Origin: Nitrosopumilus sp.
GTDB lineage: Archaea > Thermoproteota > Nitrososphaeria > Nitrososphaerales > Nitrosopumilaceae
Direction: 5' to 3'
Assembly (NCBI GenBank): GCA_965223425.1
Contig: OZ245003.1
Coordinates: forward strand, 2,016,001 to 2,080,000
Length of the DNA: 64,000 nt
Below, piece after piece: positions 43,976 through 52,680 of this stretch. The stretch's first letter is position 1. Every line of letters begins with the position of its first letter. The notes below the pieces were generated by a model. That model searched no databases. It was not told where the DNA came from and saw nothing but the letters and a program-made list of their open reading frames with translations. The translations under genes were made by a program, and so were the position numbers.

Positions 43976-45271
43976 GTGAATTTACTTTCTATTGGTGGTT
44001 CAGATCCTTCATCAGGGGCAGGCATTCAAAGTGATGTCAAAACATTTTCTATGCTTGATGCACATTGCTTAACTGTAATTACTGCAATTACTAGCCAAAA
44101 CACTACAAAGTTTGGTAAGAGTGAGCCAGTCTCACAAAATGCCCTAAAAAACCAACTAGATTCAGTATTGTCAGATTTTAAAATTGATGGAATAAAAATT
44201 GGGATGGTGTATGATTCACAAATCATCAAAACATTACATCATAAATTAAAAAAATTAAAAATTCCCATAGTTGTTGATCCTGTAATAAAATCAACAACAG
44301 GCGGGTCACTAATCAAAAATTCAGCCATCAAAGATTTTCAAAAATTCATCATTCCCCTTGCTGCGGTAATTACGCCAAACAAATTTGAGGCCGAAACTCT
44401 ATCAAAAACCAAAAATAATACAAAAAATTCGCCAAAAAAAATTGCAAAAATAATTCAGAAAATGGGGGCAAAAAACGTAGTAATTACCGGAGTTGATCAA
44501 AAAAATAACCAGATATCAGATTTTGTATTAGAGAAAAACAAAGAATACGTTATTTCCGGAGACAGAGTTCCTAAAACGAACCATGGAAGTGGATGCAACT
44601 ACTCTGCGGCCATACTTTTTGCACTTGTAAAAAAGAAAAACATGCTAGAGTCGATGAAATTTGCAAAACAATTCACTTACAATTCCATAAAAAACGCAAA
44701 AAAGATTGGAAAAGGGGTTGCCATAACAGGTATTCAAGGAGACAGTATCAATTCACACCTATCAGATGCAGTTAACAAATTTGTCGAGATTAAAAATATC
44801 TATAAAAATATTCCAGAATGTCAAACAAATTTTGTAAATTCCAAACAAAAACCAAAATCAATAAAAGACGTTTTAGGTATTTCTGGAAGAATTGTAAAAG
44901 CTGGAAAACAAGTAATGGTTGCAGGCGATTTAAGATATGGAGGCTCAAAACATGTTGCAACAGCATTACTTGCAGTTAATAAAAAATTTCCACAAGTATG
45001 CTCAGCAATAAACCTCAAGTATCAAAATTCCACCATATCAAAAATTAAAAAAACAAAATTAGTTGTTTCGAGTTATGATAGAAGTCAAGAACCCAAAAGT
45101 GTGAAAGGCAAACGTTCCACCATAAAATGGGGAATGAAAAATTCAATTAAAAATTTAAACAAAGCACCTGACATTGTGTTTCACAAAGGAGATTTTGGAA
45201 AGGAGCCCATGATCATAGTTTTCGGCGAGACTCCAAATAGTGTAATCAAAAAAATTTTAAAGATTGTTTGA
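43976..45271 (+). CDS. thiDN: HMP/HMP-P kinase fused to ThiN thiamine-phosphate synthase
   Basis: GGSDPSSGAGIQ, TPNKFEA, HGSGC; C-terminal IPECQTN, GGSKHVA, GKEPM. Confidence 0.93.
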   Translation: MNLLSIGGSDPSSGAGIQSDVKTFSMLDAHCLTVITAITSQNTTKFGKSEPVSQNALKNQLDSVLSDFKIDGIKIGMVYDSQIIKTLHHKLKKLKIPIVVDPVIKSTTGGSLIKNSAIKDFQKFIIPLAAVITPNKFEAETLSKTKNNTKNSPKKIAKIIQKMGAKNVVITGVDQKNNQISDFVLEKNKEYVISGDRVPKTNHGSGCNYSAAILFALVKKKNMLESMKFAKQFTYNSIKNAKKIGKGVAITGIQGDSINSHLSDAVNKFVEIKNIYKNIPECQTNFVNSKQKPKSIKDVLGISGRIVKAGKQVMVAGDLRYGGSKHVATALLAVNKKFPQVCSAINLKYQNSTISKIKKTKLVVSSYDRSQEPKSVKGKRSTIKWGMKNSIKNLNKAPDIVFHKGDFGKEPMIIVFGETPNSVIKKILKIV

Positions 45272-45274
45272 TTC

Positions 45275-46652
45275 CAGTCACCCAGAACAGCATATGCAGT
45301 TAAACTCATGTAAGCCTTGGGTTCTCCCATACGAAATCACCCCTTATCCTACTGCGGACCATTCTCAGTGTGCTTTGCTGAATCAGGATGTTTCTGATTT
45401 GTCTTGCATCTTCTTATACTTTCTTTGCGTCAACTCATGATTCTGTGTGCGGTATTCCTCCATGTTTGTTAGCATGTGCCAGATTATCTCAAGCATCATC
45501 TGCCTTGCAGCTGCTATTCTTGCCTTTTGTTTTCTTCTTCTCTTTGCGATTCTTGAATAAAATGATTCCATCCTTGGATCAAATCGTATCGTGGTGTTTG
45601 CAGCCTCCACCTGCATTGCGCAGCCATGCAGAACCACGTTTTGTTATTCCGCCGCCTCCTTTTTGCGTCTCTCCGCTGTCCCTGTGCGATGGTGCAAGTC
45701 CCGCATATGAGACGAGTTTCTCTGCTGTTGCAAATCTGTTAATGTCAACTATCTCGGATATTATTGTCAGTGCCGTGACATAGCTTATTCCAGGCATTGT
45801 CATGACTAGTCTTGCCCTTTCATCCTCGTTGCTAATTGCAGCAATCTTTGTCTCAAATGTGTCAATCTGTTTTTGATTCATCTCAATGTTTTCAAGATAT
45901 GCGTCCATTGCCATCCTGTCAACTTCTGTCAGACTGATTTCATGCAGCCATCTGATTCCCTTCTGTGAGAATGTCTTTATTGTCGGTTGGGTGTAGTCGT
46001 ATTTTGCAAGTATTGCATAAATCATGTTTTTGTGTTTTGAGACACTGTGTACGCGATTCAGTCTTGTTCTTACCAGACTGCGCAGGTCCCGATAGTATTT
46101 TTCTGGTACAAATGACTCGTACACCATGTCAGATCTTAGCAGGTCTGCCAACACGTCTGAATCGAGCTTGTCGTTTTTGAGTTTTGCCTGTGCTATTATC
46201 TTGGTCTTTGCAGGGTGTGCAAGAACAGTATCAATGCCGTTATCCTCCAGTGTGTCATGCAGTCTAATCCAGTAGTTGGCAGTTGATTCGCACACTGCTT
46301 GCATGTCTTTGCCGTATGTCTTTTTGACGTGTCTGATAAAACCCGTTATTCCACGTGTGGTGTTCTCAAAGCTTGACTGTTCCAGCTTTTTTCTGGTATC
46401 TTTTTTTACTGTTGCAACGCACCTGTTTTTGTGAACGTCAATTCCTATGCTGATCATATTATCACCTCCTTTCTGATCAAATTGCCTGATTCTGCGGAAT
46501 GCTCCCATTCACCATCATCTGTGTGGTATTTTGTTTTCCGCTCACTTTGAGTTAGTCTGTGAAACGCCCTTGTACATGGCAGTAACCCTTCAACTCTCAG
46601 GCCCAACAGTAACGATACATCACAGGATATAGAAAAGATTTCGTATAACGTC
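45275..46652 (-). mobile_element. IS110-family element type B, transposase 46457-45383 with one frameshift near 45605
   Basis: IGIDVH, CEST, KNDKLDS, YAGLAPSHRDSG; TC at both junctions (45273-74, 46651-52). Confidence 0.88.
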
Positions 46653-46776
46653 TGTCAAGTTATCGGGCGTTTAGTCTAAATCTTTTACCTGTAAAGGGTC
46701 GGGACATGGGTTCTGTAACAAATTGGGGACATGAATACGGATCTTCTCTGAATTGAAAATTTTCTCTTTCTCCACG

Positions 46777-46893
46777 TTAACTGTCGGGTGTTTTTGAGGC
46801 TATGATTCCTATTTTGATCAGTTTTGCCTTTAGTTCAGTTGTTGTCATTTTATTTCCCTTCATGGAATTACATGATTGGCATAATAGTTGTTT
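46777..46893 (-). pseudogene. C-terminal fragment of HNH nuclease truncated by IS66
   Basis: KQLLCQSCNSMKGNK. Confidence 0.6.
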
Positions 46894-46894
46894 G

Positions 46895-47367
46895 GTACGT
46901 GTTCACCTGATTTAGCTCAGTTTTACATATATTTTACAATCTCGGCCACATAGCCAATATTCTTGTTCTTCCAAGTGGTGACACACGAGAATAGATTCCC
47001 CATCCATTCCATGGTATCCACAGATCTCAGCCCGCCACGGATCTTTCTGTGCACTACAATCTCGCGCAATCCGCGCTCGGCGGCATTGTTGGTAGGCGGG
47101 ATGCCGGGGTCTGATACGAACCGGAACATGTCAGGCGCCGCCCTGCTCAGCTTTTTCATGAAACGCTCCAATATGGGATTATCCGAATATTTCATGATCA
47201 GCTGCCTTATCCGCCGCAACAGTCTGCAGCAGAGATCCGTTCTGTTTCCGGCCGCACCGCATCCGTCCCTGTACATTCTTTTTAGCACATCCCGTACGCA
47301 CCTGCATTGCGGGTCGTCATATTTGACGCACAGGTCACGTGCCTCGCGCAGTATGTGCGACCAGCAC
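46895..47367 (-). mobile_element. IS66-family remnant (3' end of tnpC)
   Basis: CWSHILRE and PPTNNAAERGLR..RKI motifs; end GTACGTGTTCACC. Confidence 0.8.
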
Positions 47368-48774
47368 TAGCTTGAACACATGATAACCACCTCGTCGTAG
47401 ATGTAGTGATGAATCGACCCCTGTATGCATATGGGCCTTGCGCCCTTGAGCTTGAATGGGGCAGTCCGAGCTGCTGTGTGACTGGGCCTTGCGCCCTGAT
47501 AGGTGTATGCAGCTTCCGATCCGTCAAAGATCCGAAAGGAGGTGATAGAAAGGATGAGCAAAGGAACAATCAGCATAGGAATAGACATTGGAAAGAGAAA
47601 ATGTGACGTATGCGTCATGGACTGGAAGGGAAAGGTTTTGCATACTGGCCAGTATCAAAACACCGTCTCAGATGCAGACAGATTCGCAGAACAGACGGCA
47701 CTCAGGTATTCTGCCAGAAGATGTCAGGCAGCATGCGAGACGACGGGCAACATGTGGAACATCACATACGGCGCCTTTGAGAGACATGGAATCGACATAA
47801 AGCTTGCCAACACCTACAAGATGGCAATAATTGCAAAGACGGGAAAGAAGACAGACAAGATTGACGCACAAAAGATAGCAAGCGTATTGAGGATGGATTC
47901 AATACCAGAGTGTTATGTGCCGTCAGCTGACACAAGAGGAGTCCGGGCCATGGTCAGACAGAGGATCAGGACCGTACAGGACAGGACACGCGTGATAAAC
48001 CGCGTCCACAGCCTGCTTGACAGATACGATGTGAAAATCGATGCCTCTGAGATGTATGCCATAAAGGCCGTAGAACAGATGGAGTCTGCAAGCCTGGGAT
48101 CCGTACATGACGAAATAGTACCGAGTCAGTGTGCCCGGCAGATAAGGAGCCTTACCGAGGAGATAAGACACATGGATGAACACCTGGAAAAGGAGGCATC
48201 GCTAAACGAGGATGCAAAACTTCTTGCCAGCATGACTGGCATGGGAATCTACTCTGCACTGCTGCTTGCCGTCAAGATAGCCGACATTGTCAGATTCGAG
48301 ACCCCAAAGAATCTCGTCTCATGGGCAGGCCTGTGTCCGGCGATACGCCAGTCAGGCGACAAAATCTACATGGGCAGAATCAAAAAGCTTGACACCAACA
48401 GTCTGGTCAACTGGGTCATGTGCGAGGCTGCAAACACGGCGGTAATTCATGATACTAGAATGAAGGCAGTTTACGAGTCTTCCAAGAGAAGACATGCAGG
48501 CAAGCATGCACTTGCCATAGTGACTGTCGCCAACAAGATGATAACCATAGCGTGGCACATACTCAAGACCAGGACACCATACGAGTCCCGAAACGAGGGA
48601 CTGTACAAACGCAAGCTTGCCAAGATGGAAAAGGCACGCCAGAGGTGATTGGTATGTGTCATCCCACCAAATTATCTCTCCAGCGTTAGCTATAAATCTT
48701 GTACCGTACAAGTAGGCACGGATCGGAAATACAACTGGGATGCGTTGCCGCAACACGTCCGGTGGTTAACATAG
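47368..48774 (+). mobile_element. IS110-family element type C
   Basis: TAG at both junctions (47368-70, 48772-74); long structured left end. Confidence 0.8.
47554..48648 (+). CDS. IS110-family DEDD recombinase
   Basis: GIDIG, CETT, KTDKIDA, WAGLCPAIRQSG. Confidence 0.92.
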   Translation: MSKGTISIGIDIGKRKCDVCVMDWKGKVLHTGQYQNTVSDADRFAEQTALRYSARRCQAACETTGNMWNITYGAFERHGIDIKLANTYKMAIIAKTGKKTDKIDAQKIASVLRMDSIPECYVPSADTRGVRAMVRQRIRTVQDRTRVINRVHSLLDRYDVKIDASEMYAIKAVEQMESASLGSVHDEIVPSQCARQIRSLTEEIRHMDEHLEKEASLNEDAKLLASMTGMGIYSALLLAVKIADIVRFETPKNLVSWAGLCPAIRQSGDKIYMGRIKKLDTNSLVNWVMCEAANTAVIHDTRMKAVYESSKRRHAGKHALAIVTVANKMITIAWHILKTRTPYESRNEGLYKRKLAKMEKARQR

Positions 48775-49989
48775 GTGTTGCATAACACGCCTAAAATCTA
48801 CCACGCAGTTTAAACTGACCAACAAACACACATGTTTCTGACCGAAAAAGCTTTAGATCATGACAGCATGCTCAAAGTGTTGACCGACAATGCAAAGTAC
48901 GTCCGGCGGGGTGCAGAGCTGGCAGTACAGTACAACCCTGACTGGAACTGCGAGGTAAGGCAGGCCAACTGCGGCAAGGAGGAGGGGGCACCGTTCCAGT
49001 ATGCAGACACCATGATCATATGACAGCCGCACTGAGAACCGCCCTCGGCGTTCCATTCAGGCAGCTGTCCGGGATGGCAGATAAGATGCTTGAGGGACAC
49101 GACTCGCCGCACCATACCACGCTGTGCAGAAGAATGGAGAAATTTGACATTAGCATTCACGGCAACACCATACACGTTCATGACGCATCCCGGCACGTAA
49201 CCCTGATGGCCGATGCCACCGGACTCAGACAGTGGAACCGCGGAGAATGGATACGCGACAAGTGGAAGGCGGTGGTGTTGCGCAAGGGATATGTCAAGAT
49301 GCACCTGCTGGCAGATGCGGACACCGGCATGATACTTGCTGCAGTAGTCACAGACGACAGAACCGGCGACTCGCCGGTACCGCAGGATCTGCTGGATCAG
49401 GCAGTGGCAGAGCCGTTTGCCAAGGCCGGGAAGGACGATGCGAGAAAGAGGCCAAACATGCTTGCAGACGGAGTCTCTCCGCTTGCCGGTTCGGCAGGCG
49501 GCAAGGAGGAGGAAGAAGAAGAAGAAGTGCCAAGTGCCAGCCTGCTTGCAGACGGCGCATATGCATCCAAGAAAAACATGAATGCGTGCAGGAAGAAGGG
49601 CATCAAGCCGCTTGTGCCACTCAAACCATGCTTTGCTGAGAGCGGCAGGGGCGATGACGGCAAGGAGTGGAACCTGGCCGTGAAAGAGCAGCTTGGGGGC
49701 AGCGCAGACATGCACGTCAAGGGACTGACAGTGGAACAGAAAAAGGAGAACAGAAGATACTGGAAGTCTACTGTAGGGTACGACAAAAGGTGGAGAATAG
49801 AGGTAATCATCTCCGCATTCAAGCGAATGTTCGGAGAGCATCTGTTCTCACGCAAGTGGGAGAGCATGGTAAGAGAGGTAAGGATGAGGATTGCCATGTA
49901 CAACCGGTGGGTGGCAGCAACAATGTAGGGGAGCAGGTGCATGGATCCTGGAATGAACGGGATGTGGTCAGGCCGAGTTATGCAACACA
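48774..49989 (+). mobile_element. IS5-family element, transposase split 48832-49023 / 49020-49928
   Basis: TIRs GTGTTGCATAAC / GTTATGCAACAC; DATG, KMHL, DSP, ADGAY, Y.KRWRIE; CTA flanks after removing IS110 type C. Confidence 0.85.
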
Positions 49990-50004
49990 CTACCGGCTAA
50001 CGGA

Positions 50005-51351
50005 TTAGTCTGTCAGTGACGGATCAGACACCCTTCCCATGAACAGGATGGTGCCGCTCTCGTCGTCCTGTATGATAAAGATGAATGGGTGGTCTGCGGT
50101 AAATTTTGGTGGTGGTGGAGGCATCGACTCCATTCCTATTACTATTGTAGTCACGGCTGCAGCCTCTGTCCCCTCTTCGTTTACGTTCACATATGCGTCC
50201 TGAACCGCCTTTGAGACAAACAGGTTTCTTCCAGATACGTCTGCAATGCCTGAGAGGTCTGCTATTTTTTTCTTAAAAGCATCTGTCATTCCAAGGCTTG
50301 TCAAGCTGGGTTCTAGATCATAATGTGTCTTCATCTCAAACTTTGGAATAGACACTATCACCTCAGATTCTGTCATACCTTGCTGCCATTTCTGCAAGAG
50401 TTTGGTCGAAAGCATCTCCTGTAATCGTTTTATGCCGTCCCTCTCAGAGGGCAGTACCACCAGCATGGAGAGTCTGTCGCCCTTGTAGGGCATCTTTAAC
50501 ACCTGCACGCCATCGCCTTCGGCATAGTTGAATGTTCCACGCACGTTCATAAAGTCAGTCCTGATGCTGTTACTGTTTGTCCAAAAATCCGACTCGCGTG
50601 TATCCTCTGCCGGGAACTGCGTCACCCAAGTTCCCTTAAAGTATATGGCATTTGCCAGAACCATCGCAGTAAGGTAACTTACAGCATCAGGTGCTAACAC
50701 CTTCTTTATCTTGCCGTGCGTTTTCTCAGACGCCCATGCGTTTATCTTCCCTACACCATCGCCCAAAAAATTGACGCGTTCGGCTTTGGCAAGGTACGTC
50801 TTGCGTATTATGTCCATGTATGAGTCATACGGAGAAAACCAGTCGGCAATCCAGACGGAGTTTGCAAGCTCCAGTGTGGCGTGCGGATCATCACGGTTCA
50901 AGGACGGCATAATGTGGGCAGTGGCGTTGTGACGCAGGGCCACGTCTGAGTCAAACCCGAAGACCTGCTGAATCTGCTGTGCCGTGTTTTCACGCGCCCC
51001 CTCGTACAGCATGGAGAATGCCACATACATGCTAAGAGGCGAGAAGAAGATGTTGTCATCATCATTGCCTGATACCTGTCCGTAAAAGTCCATGGCAAAG
51101 TCGTTGTTTGCCATGGCTATGCTTTGCGGGATCTCTGAGGGCTCCCCCTGAAGGCTGAAAGATATGTTATTTGGGATGTCAATGAGTGTTGAAACAAGAG
51201 GGGCCATGTATGTCCCAAAGTCAGACACGTAGACCTGTACAATATGGAGAGAAGGAATGATAATCTTAACTAAGAATTCATTATCAAGCATCATCACAAA
51301 AAAGGCCACTATGGCTACAAATATCAGGATTGTAACATATCTTTTCTTCAT
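50005..51351 (-). CDS. Serpin (serine protease inhibitor) with N-terminal membrane anchor
   Basis: NIFFSPLS, NAIYFKGTW, IPKF, hinge EEGTEAAAVT, FTADHPFIF. Confidence 0.95.
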   Translation of the reverse strand: MKKRYVTILIFVAIVAFFVMMLDNEFLVKIIIPSLHIVQVYVSDFGTYMAPLVSTLIDIPNNISFSLQGEPSEIPQSIAMANNDFAMDFYGQVSGNDDDNIFFSPLSMYVAFSMLYEGARENTAQQIQQVFGFDSDVALRHNATAHIMPSLNRDDPHATLELANSVWIADWFSPYDSYMDIIRKTYLAKAERVNFLGDGVGKINAWASEKTHGKIKKVLAPDAVSYLTAMVLANAIYFKGTWVTQFPAEDTRESDFWTNSNSIRTDFMNVRGTFNYAEGDGVQVLKMPYKGDRLSMLVVLPSERDGIKRLQEMLSTKLLQKWQQGMTESEVIVSIPKFEMKTHYDLEPSLTSLGMTDAFKKKIADLSGIADVSGRNLFVSKAVQDAYVNVNEEGTEAAAVTTIVIGMESMPPPPPKFTADHPFIFIIQDDESGTILFMGRVSDPSLTD

Positions 51352-51364
51352 GAGACTTTATGCG

Positions 51365-52680
51365 TATCCATGTGAATTCTTTATAAACATTCCTTGCAAA
51401 CTGTCACAGTGTTGAATGGCTCACGCTGGGGTTGATCCAAATTCCAAAAGATGAGCGGACAAGTATCCATTCGGGATCTTACTCCCAGTGCCATTCTTCA
51501 TCCATTTGTTAGATTGAACCGCAGTTAATTGCCCGAGGTGTAACCTCAACGCATAAAACGCAGACAGACTCTAACCGTAATAAATTATTTTTGGGCAACA
51601 TACTCTTTTTTCTCCTTTAGCATCCAATATATTACACGTATCAGCTTTGATGCCGCTGCAACCTTTGCCTTTGATCTTCCTCTCTTTTTTGCAAGACGGT
51701 TGCAGAATCTTGTAATGTCGCTGTCAGGCGCGTGTCTTGTATGGGTCTGGATTGCCTCCACTGCTATCCATCGCAGCATACGGCTTCCCCTCTTTGTTAT
51801 CCTGCCGTGGTGTACCGTCTCAGCAGAGTTTCTCACGGACGGAACAATGCCCGCGTATGCACACAGTTTGTGCGAGTCTGAAAATCTTTTGACATTGCCA
51901 ATCTCCGAATATATTGCAAGCGCAGAATAATACCCTATTCCAGGAACGGTGGTCAGCAGACTGATGTTCTGATCCCTTTTGACTATCCGGCGGGTTTTTA
52001 CATCCATTTTGTAGATCTGCCCGTCTAGAAACGCTATGGAATCAAGGAACGAATCTATGCGATAGTTCCTCAGTTTTCTCAATTCCCTTACGTGGCCGGA
52101 TCCGAATCCGCCGGATTTTGTCTTGATTCCGTTTTGCAAGAGTATCCCATGTATGGAATTCTTCATGACTGTTCTTGTCTTGACCAGTTTGTTTCTGTGT
52201 CTTGCAAGGTGTCTTAGCTCTACTATGTCATTGTCGGGCACGTGGCACTGTGCAATGTAGCCCCCTCTCAATAGATTTGCCAGCGCCTGCGCGTCCACCT
52301 TGTCTGTTTTTTTGAGCGACGTTGCAATTACCTTGGTGCTAAACGGATTGGATACGATTACATTTAATCCCAGCGTATCTGTGAGAAACCGGTATAGGCC
52401 GTACCAGACAGATGATGATTCCAGCACGTATTTTGAGTCCCTTGGGATCATGGCAAATGTTTTCCTGATCTCCGCATGATTGTTCTTTATCTTCATGTTG
52501 GACTGCAGTGTCCCGCCGCCATCCAGTACTGCAACTTGAATCGTCTCCTTGTGCACGTCTAGTCCAACATACATGATCTTGTCAGAACCACGGGTAATCT
52601 GTTTCTTTGTTTTTTTCTTTTTAAAGGACTTGATGCCAGTGTCATCTAAAATTCCTTTTCTCCGAGCCTTCACATATGGT
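51365..52680 (-). mobile_element. IS110 (IS1111-type) type A copy 2
   Basis: Near-identical inverted copy of 30250-31565; TA core. Confidence 0.92.
51585..52673 (-). CDS. IS110-family DEDD recombinase
   Basis: Differs from 30257-31345 at only a few residues. Confidence 0.95.
   Translation of the reverse strand: MKARRKGILDDTGIKSFKKKKTKKQITRGSDKIMYVGLDVHKETIQVAVLDGGGTLQSNMKIKNNHAEIRKTFAMIPRDSKYVLESSSVWYGLYRFLTDTLGLNVIVSNPFSTKVIATSLKKTDKVDAQALANLLRGGYIAQCHVPDNDIVELRHLARHRNKLVKTRTVMKNSIHGILLQNGIKTKSGGFGSGHVRELRKLRNYRIDSFLDSIAFLDGQIYKMDVKTRRIVKRDQNISLLTTVPGIGYYSALAIYSEIGNVKRFSDSHKLCAYAGIVPSVRNSAETVHHGRITKRGSRMLRWIAVEAIQTHTRHAPDSDITRFCNRLAKKRGRSKAKVAAASKLIRVIYWMLKEKKEYVAQK

Follow-up and report, generated by a model that had tools for sequence, protein, structure and literature searches.

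Where exactly does a mobile element end when it has landed in the end of another, and on which strand is the RNA that would guide it there? These questions are raised by a locus of Nitrosopumilus sp. in a window of 64,000 nucleotides (nt; OZ245003.1 2,016,001-2,080,000), whose numbering is used throughout. An initial annotation had seen here an IS110-type insertion sequence (IS) placed exactly at the tip of an IS5 terminal inverted repeat (TIR), with TAG at both junctions and a bridge RNA antisense to the recombinase gene. Comparison with other copies and with relatives gives the boundaries of the element, a TG core, subterminal inverted repeats, a conserved fold in the left end and covariation of guides with flanks and element ends. 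The reading that we favor, with good confidence, is that of an IS1111-type element of the IS110 superfamily with RNA-guided insertion at a TG in an IS5-like end and a bridge (seek) RNA in its left end, sense to the gene.

The gene that identifies the superfamily is the following:

47536-48648, plus strand: DEDD recombinase gene, 370 amino acids (aa), with DEDD_Tnp_IS110 (PF01548, E 2.1e-28) and Transposase_20 (PF02371, E 6e-18) domains

Both Pfam domain scores exceed the cut-offs, and the window copy is the sole copy in the genome with a gene matched across residues 1-370. Matches in the PDB are distant and cover the N-terminal domain only (transposases of ISCro4, E 5.9e-9, and IS621, E 2.2e-7). 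The relatives compared here (36-69% protein identity) were taken from the same genus and order, plus one genome per species (79 loci, numbered with the prefix L). Archaeal relatives belong to Nitrosopumilaceae, other Nitrososphaerota, Bathyarchaeia and one Promethearchaeati contig; weak matches are bacterial. Naming the subgroup via plasmid annotation was dropped, as all names there are the generic 'IS110 family transposase'.

The limits of the element were set by comparing empty with occupied sites and with intact IS5 ends, which gave these features:

47373-47374, plus strand: TG core, left copy, derived from the target; just before it, at 47368-47372, is the start of the IS5 end, (TA)GCT
47375-48775, plus strand: insertion sequence proper, 1401 base pairs (bp) without the cores, AACACATGATAACC...GGTTAACATAGG; homology to other genome copies begins and stops here
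48776-48777, plus strand: TG core, right copy; the remainder of the IS5-like element, TTGCATAACACGCC..., comes next, with its right end near 49983
47380-47391, plus strand: subterminal inverted repeat, left arm, ATGATAACCACC; distance to the left end 5 nt (7 nt with the core)
48761-48772, plus strand: right arm of this repeat, GGTGGTTAACAT, conserved in orthologs and followed by the 3-nt extension AGG (48773-48775)

The duplicated core is TG, and TAG is excluded, because three unoccupied paralogous sites carry a single TG (GGCGGCATCT-TG-CGCACAAAGG at C1:1254479, 311534 and 900266), whereas copies C and D, which occupy such sites, have TG at both junctions (...CATCT-TG-[IS]-TG-CGCAC...). Beyond this 2-nt core, no target duplication shared by both junctions was found between empty and occupied sites. 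The right-hand TAG is part of the right end of the element itself: 4/4 complete right ends have it, including two outside IS5, and all of these read ...GGTTAACATAGG-TG, copies C and D (away from IS5) included. The left-hand TAG belongs to the IS5 side, because nine of ten other IS5 left ends read TAGCT|TGTTGCATAAC, the tenth reading TAGAT|. Left ends of the element read ...TG-AACACATG, preceded by TAGCT, TAGTT or CATCT, with CAT instead of TAG in three copies of 98-99% identity. The letters of the annotated junctions are present as given, but their division after TAG falls with the empty sites. Some bases next to the core are common to the IS5 end (CTTG...) and the element (TG-AAC...), which led the annotation astray over donor and target. 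In four public DNA runs, contig breakpoints lie at 47371 and 48776/48777; the loose ends there are GGCGGCAT, ...TAGCT and CGCACAAAGGCCTG, and the flanks are those expected from other copies. In the same contigs no circle junction and no strand information was found; two joints were set aside (single contigs, 23-letter sides), as was a high summed depth over 47386-47547, which was uninterpretable.

The arms of the inverted repeat in the window copy are complementary at 11/12 positions, and those of orthologs are longer (L102, 15/15; L108, 14/15; L032, 13/15). Outside them lie terminal extensions of 7 nt on the left (TGAACAC, core counted once) and 3 nt on the right (AGG), and the non-coding ends measure 161 nt (left) and 127 nt (right). 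In L033 and L058-L064 an internal right-end-like motif, TTT(T/C)TACATGAA-TG-CTGGGGGGCC, stands about 150-300 nt before the true right end, GGGTTAACATAGA-TG; L033 has it twice in tandem.

On its right the element borders an IS whose transposase gene is of the DDE_Tnp_1 (IS4/IS5) type (E 3.4e-19). The terminal repeats of this IS5-like element are imperfect, TAG(C/T)(T/G)TGTTGCATAAC, with TA at both sides, and its right ends are GTTATCGAACACACTA-like, exactly ...GTTATGCAACACACTA and then variable sequence. The crossover TG corresponds to bases 4-5 of the IS5 left end GCTTGTTGCATAAC, the target being ..TAGCT-TG-TTGCATAAC.... Insertion is 4-5 bp inside the IS5-like left inverted repeat; the annotation was right that an IS110-superfamily element sits at the TIR tip, but not that it sits exactly at the end. 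Among ortholog rows, 14/63 (the window's own excluded) are also at IS5-like ends, xTAG-N-(C/T)TGT-TG-CA(T/C)AA, three bases further in.

Besides the window copy (A), the genome (2.64 Mb, two contigs) holds five more copies, B-F, at 98-99% identity, and diverged or broken relics, G-K. They occupy three kinds of site, every one inside another insertion sequence:

Site kind 1, IS5-like left end: copies A and B, and F, G and J from the left flank only
Site kind 2, GGCATCT-TG-CGCACAAAGG: copies C and D, in the 3' part of an rve_3 transposase gene
Site kind 3, CCCCATCT-TG-CGGTACTG: copy E, in a repeat of more than 35 copies, with a frame that has a weak DDE_Tnp_1 C-terminal match

In terms of the flank survey proposed with the initial annotation, copies of the first kind lie at IS5 ends, and C, D and E lie in other transposons. 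Copies K (C1:2362873) and G (C1:129398) were rejected as truncated relics, with the right end absent within 3.5 kb.

The left ends of the relatives have one common architecture. RNAalifold, run on the left ends of 21 orthologs, gave four helices, that is, two closing stems each around a short hairpin, with double changes in 8/18 pairs. In the window the fold comprises the following parts:

47418-47461, plus strand: loop 1, predicted target-binding loop, with closing stem CCCC (47418-21)/GGGG (47458-61); consensus fold with compensatory changes
47422-32, plus strand: 5' arm of loop 1, UGUAUGCA-UA-U; putative right-target guide and core complement
47433-45, plus strand: hairpin 1, GGGCCUUGCGCCC
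47446-57, plus strand: 3' arm of loop 1, UUGAGCU-UG-AAU; putative left-target guide and core, AGCUUG, at 47449-54
47469-47514, plus strand: loop 2, predicted donor-binding loop, with closing stem AGCUGC (47469-74)/GCAGCU (47509-14); stems supported by the fold analysis
47475-83, plus strand: 5' arm of loop 2, UGUGUGACU; putative right-donor guide, pairing with the left-end bases AACACA
47484-96, plus strand: hairpin 2, GGGCCUUGCGCCC
47499-505, plus strand: AUAGG-UG within the 3' arm of loop 2; putative left-donor guide and core

Each loop follows the same plan: stem, U, about 8 nt, CA (or UA, UG, CG), U, hairpin, 2-3 nt, 4-7 nt, UG, AAU/ACU and stem. A covariance model built from the ortholog alignment found 64 RNA places among 88 sources, always upstream of the gene and sense to it, plus one solo fragment; in the window's own genome it found eight full and four partial copies, and in 13 bacterial loci it had no match. 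Across 55 distinct rows, 94.6% of paired cells can pair, vs 83.1% in shuffles, and both sides change in 11/18 pairs. None of five fold measures was reached by any shuffle (0/500), and slid partners were at most 52% paired. Rfam has no family at the left end; its two weak matches in 44000-52000 are elsewhere and below gathering scores.

The repeated 15-nt TGGGCCTTGCGCCCT that first drew attention to this region is found exactly at 47432-47446 and 47483-47497, with the words ..AGCTTGAA (47449-47456) and ..ATAGGTGT (47499-47506) after the hairpins as described. The twin hairpins had been taken as a sign that one loop arose by duplication of the other. They are identical or near-identical in several lineages, with sequence differing between lineages; exact identity is lineage-specific and gives no evidence of recent duplication. 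It looks like concerted change of two sites that would be bound by the same protein. In L100 (1056-1154) hairpin 1 is joined straight to the left-donor guide, everything between the near-identical hairpins being deleted, as if by their recombination.

Covariation across homologs, the check proposed with the initial annotation, was clear for both target guides. Left-target guide and left flank agree at 4.57/6 positions, compared with 1.89 ± 0.18 in shuffled pairings (42 guide types; 0/10,000 as high), with match frequencies of 0.83-0.95 at positions -4 to -1. Examples are copy K (flank CGTTTC-TG, arm GUUUC-UG) and L107 (flank TTGAATA-TG, arm UUGAAUA-UG). Between the right-target guide and the right flank, 4.58/8 positions are complementary, vs 2.33 ± 0.26 in shuffles (26 types; 0/10,000), with right ends that were found independently of the guides, from the inverted repeat and, for nine rows, from a conserved ACAT motif. 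This score is an underestimate, as gap placement put L073, L108 and L064 out of register in the script; in the ungapped RNA, by eye, L073 and L108 pair at 8/8 positions (2/8 in the script). Pairing in L056, L058 and L070 is 7/8.

The second loop behaves differently. In 25/26 rows listed, its left-donor pentamer is identical to the five bases that close the right end (L070 has one mismatch), and the two change together (ATAGG, ATAGA, ATGAG, ATGGA, ATGGG). The right-donor arm follows the first six left-end bases in many lineages (AACACA/UGUGUU, AAGACA/UGUCUA, AAAGCA/UGCUCU), as judged by eye and without a shuffle. Loop 1 is the predicted target loop and loop 2 the predicted donor loop, each with predicted guides, which reverses the assignment first made: hairpin 1 is followed by a word that had been called donor and covaries with left flanks, hairpin 2 by one that had been called target and matches the right end. 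Two extensions of the guides were rejected. The first two bases of the element (AA/AC), into which the left-target guide might extend, are constant within sub-clades, and extension of the left-donor guide into the first right-target base fits in about 6/21 cases by eye, which is near chance.

The matches between loops and flanks could in principle be accidental, produced by insertion into repeats, with the protein alone recognizing the ends through their inverted repeats. The long subterminal repeats could be protein-binding sites, and some copies mismatch their own guides. Covariation that spans 42 and 26 guide types, in many genomes and four archaeal phyla-level groups, argues against this, as does the experimental demonstration of RNA-guided targeting for both family subgroups in passages of the literature on them, and recognition by protein alone is scarcely credible here.

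In L083, L098 and L106, AG stands in place of TG at the left junction, and the left-target guides end in AG; the core therefore appears to be programmable in this clade. The ortholog L032 lies just after at least three repeats GTTTGAATTGA(T/G)CTATGATAGGATTGAAAG with spacers of about 37 nt (L032:1200-1330), an arrangement like a CRISPR array, and its right-target guide fits the right flank poorly (2/8).

Does the guide RNA lie in the left end at all? IS1111-type ends and a fairly long right non-coding end would fit the canonical IS1111 layout, in which the guide RNA would come from the 127-nt right end, GCAACACGT included, and the left structure would be something else, e.g. a messenger RNA leader. 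An unbiased scan for 6-mers matching the target gave 114 in the left end vs a shuffled mean of 36.1 (0/500 shuffles as high), in agreement with the earlier placement of guides there. In the coding region the count was 231 vs 229 (229/500 as high), and in the right end there was no enrichment (30 vs 24.5; 98/500). The word in question, which had been offered as an alternative plus-strand guide and is present where it was reported, is this:

48750-48758, plus strand: GCAACACGT, complementary (GCAACA) to the core and the first 4 nt of the right target; not a conserved guide

It varies among copies in a way unrelated to the target, and copies C and D retain it despite a different target. A right-end 6-mer of this sort occurs in 3/30 elements (shuffled mean 0.94; 77/2000 as high), two of the three being close kin. 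Antisense to their own target is also an 8-mer in the right ends of L048 and L049, TAGGCACG, about 62 nt from the end and spanning the core (CGTG-CCTA); its bases are conserved in the window too, at 48711-48720, where the target differs. Given the strong enrichment of the left end and the lack of it in the right, we regard the canonical layout as highly improbable and return to a bridge RNA in the left end.

The strand of this RNA had been placed opposite to the gene: a minus-strand bridge RNA, divergent from the recombinase gene, with TACACCT and TTCAAGCT as guides. The only argument for it came from the TAG core. Once TG is taken as the core, the plus strand is the one on which the two words finish in it, so that an antisense RNA is unneeded, and minus-strand guides would begin with the core, opposite to IS621. 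As plus-strand RNA the guides end in the core (AGCU-UG and AUAGG-UG, and ...CA in the 5' arms of orthologs). In 53 unique rows the stems contain 40 G-U cells on the plus strand, vs 12 A-C/C-A cells, which would be G-U on the minus strand. The core complement of the right-target guide varies between CA, UA, UG and CG, all of which pair with TG via wobble on the plus strand only. RNAs of IS621, ISEc11, ISPa11, ISKpn4 and ISEc21 are sense to the gene, a strand that the passages on these elements do not state outright. Characterized relatives use RNA from a non-coding end; for ISEc11, ISPa11, ISKpn4 and ISEc21, recombinase-bound RNA is mapped to the non-coding region in passages of PMC11187229. 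That guides end 3' at the core in IS621 is described, from the solved complex and a covariation analysis, in passages of PMC11208160 and PMC11208158.

Several points weigh against our reading as a whole or against the strand assigned in it. The related sequences are non-independent, and the shuffle counts overstate significance. The window copy's own right-target guide fits bases 2-7 to the right of the core, one nt out of register (2/8 in register), and the guides of several genome copies misfit their own site, which may be expected if RNA from sibling copies acts in trans. A look through six runs found no RNA run that carries the element, and the strand is inferred from sequence. Covariation by itself picks neither strand, as the complementarity of guides to DNA is symmetric between strands, and the alignment behind the pairing and stem G-U counts was fitted to the plus-strand model and favors it somewhat. 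Fold energies are similar for both strands: the plus strand is more stable in 33/52 (mean difference -1.3 kcal/mol, standard deviation 5.4), a difference too weak for a strand test. Wobble-type mismatches at the best-paired guide positions number 19 vs 15; the count over all positions (44 vs 20 for plus) was discarded as a test, the outer positions being constant U/G-rich linkers. With these points taken in, we consider it very likely that the bridge RNA is on the plus strand, sense to the recombinase, and very unlikely that it is antisense.

We propose a mechanism in which the DEDD recombinase would insert the element by RNA-guided recombination at the TG core. Loop 1 would read the target, with AGCU-UG as left-target guide and UAUGCA..UA as right-target guide, and loop 2 would read the joined ends, with AUAGG-UG as left-donor guide for the right end and UGUGU as right-donor guide for the left end. 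As in IS621, each of the four guides would reach the core with its 3' end. From the family one would expect plus-strand transcription, a circular intermediate and a recombinase tetramer in which each loop is bound by one dimer.

Assignment to a subgroup draws on both branches of the family. Membership of the IS110 superfamily follows its usual marks: the DEDD and Transposase_20 domains, a structured end RNA with predicted complementarity to target and joined ends, and duplication of the core only. As in the IS1111 group, the subterminal repeats are of the right size with 7/3 extensions, and the top-strand guide precedes the bottom-strand guide: hairpin 1 has the right-target guide on its 5' side and the left-target guide on its 3' side, and loop 2 keeps this order. 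The RNA, expected downstream of the gene in that group, instead occupies the 161-nt left end, an upstream position shared with the IS110 group (IS621 type). From the latter the element differs in arm order, which is opposite in both loops, and in its 12-bp repeats (13-15 bp in orthologs). The name that probably suits it best, taken from its ends and guide order and not from a protein tree, is IS1111-type element with a bridge RNA in the left end.

Published passages supply the terms of this comparison. According to Siddiquee et al. 2024 (PMC11187229), IS1111 elements are marked by 7/3-bp terminal extensions together with subterminal inverted repeats that measure 11-13 bp, and repeats of 7-17 bp are given for IS1111 by Durrant et al. 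(PMC11208160). IS1111 seekRNAs have the top-strand guide 5' of the bottom-strand guide, opposite to ISEc21 (PMC11187229). With ISEc11, ISPa11 and ISKpn4, as these passages describe them, the window element shares the DEDD transposase, the plan of repeats and extensions, the guide order and specific targets; in those elements the long non-coding region and the RNA are downstream of the gene, whereas the two-loop RNA here is upstream. Exceptions with an upstream position are listed in the passages (ISMtsp17 upstream; ISHvo10 and ISAcp5 both), by position only, the RNA being unanalyzed there (PMC11187229).

The likeness to IS621 and the IS110 group, to the extent that the passages describe them, lies in a left-end RNA upstream of the gene, a target loop followed by a donor loop and a 2-nt core at both junctions. 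Each loop runs stem, guide, inner hairpin, guide, stem, and guides include the core and end in it. In IS621 the 5' arm of a loop is complementary to the bottom strand (left half) and its 3' arm to the top strand (right half) (PMC11208160, PMC11208158), an order that is swapped in the window element. The IS110 group has subterminal repeats of only 2-3 bp in these accounts, compared with 12 bp here, and the core, TG in the window element (AG in the three orthologs named above), is CT in IS621. Protein similarity to IS621 is weak and limited to the N-terminal domain.

The choice of targets also has parallels. IS4321/IS5075, bacterial elements of the IS1111 family, are said to hunt other mobile elements. 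ISEc21 targets a conserved stretch of IS3-family transposase genes in a passage of PMC11187229; it too hunts other mobile elements, but it is a bacterial element with other targets, those here being an IS5-like end and rve_3 and DDE_Tnp_1-type transposase genes.

Closer to the archaea, the best protein matches in the plasmid collection are IS110-family elements of haloarchaeal megaplasmids (NZ_CP034941.1, NZ_CP073371.1; 33-35% identity). Their subterminal inverted repeats are 17-23 bp long and begin ATGGAAA, and one of them has a loop-1-like motif upstream of the gene (...GUUCUGU-UG-ACU-GG). They are unlike the window element in their covariance-model score (E 0.55) and in having about 200 nt at both non-coding ends. 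In the alphaproteobacterial relative L140 (Afipia plasmid, 32.6% identity) a weak inverted repeat (19 nt, 79%) lies about 60 nt before and about 240 nt after the gene, an IS1111-like layout in this one case.

A literature search found no description of this archaeal layout; the supplements of PMC11187229 (trees, logos) and PMC11208160 (bridge-RNA table) may include such elements. The 86 bridge-RNA models of a 2026 preprint (10.64898/2026.10.21.760802), many of them unlike IS621 in the passage that presents them, may cover the present one.

What the element adds is an archaeal lineage of RNA-guided recombinases that is well delimited, with TG as core and clear covariation of four guides. It is a variant of an already known IS110-superfamily type, with a mix of the architectures of the two subgroups. 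A bridge RNA antisense to its gene would have been truly surprising, and the evidence makes it unneeded. The combined architecture bears on the movement of bridge RNAs between ends, a point raised in a passage of Durrant et al. (PMC11208160). IS1111-type ends and guide order are combined here with a complete two-loop left-end RNA. We raise, tentatively and with considerable doubt, the possibility that the clade (Nitrososphaerota, Bathyarchaeia, one Promethearchaeati contig, perhaps haloarchaea) is a surviving intermediate between the family branches and that the window copy's target guides are staggered, the left on the first TG and the right fitting after the second TG. If the former is true, the RNA module would have switched sides of the circle junction with its internal order unchanged; if the guides are staggered, recombination would tolerate a bulged or skipped base between them. 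The locus is also a natural case of one IS disarming others via insertion into their ends and transposase genes, and a caution for boundary calling: where bases next to the core are shared, a three-base shift inverts guide identity and the reading of the strand.

Some copies of the element have themselves been interrupted. Copies C and D are each interrupted by 1.13 kb of an IS630-type element (DDE_3, E 1.6e-22, and HTH domains), which lies at a TA within CGTA, equivalent to window positions 47973-47976 (C1:851136/852268 and C1:2134103/2135234), and copy E is split elsewhere by a different insert of about 1.1 kb. The multicopy IS that houses copy E (C1:1049800, more than 35 paralogous sites) has two versions at the element's target: 5/15 listed sites read CATCT-CT-TG-CGG and 10/15 read CATCT-TG-CGG, a 2-bp CT difference within the transposase frame.

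The surroundings of the element in the window include three further genes:

46923-47367, minus strand: IS66-family transposase gene, 3' part (PF03050, E 5.1e-9), reaching the IS5 end
45579-46508, minus strand: second, distinct IS110-family gene, 0.9 kb to the left, a 309-aa frame with both Pfam domains
50005-51351, minus strand: 448-aa frame to the right of IS5, serpin-like by eye, with a signal-anchor-like N-terminus

Because an IS66 stretch with 96% identity at C1:1798748-1799044 ends at the same base as the window copy, the three mobile elements appear to be nested, IS5 in IS66 and the IS1111-type element in IS5. In the second IS110-family gene the Transposase_20 domain is cut at 67/87, and the covariance model has no match in its neighborhood.

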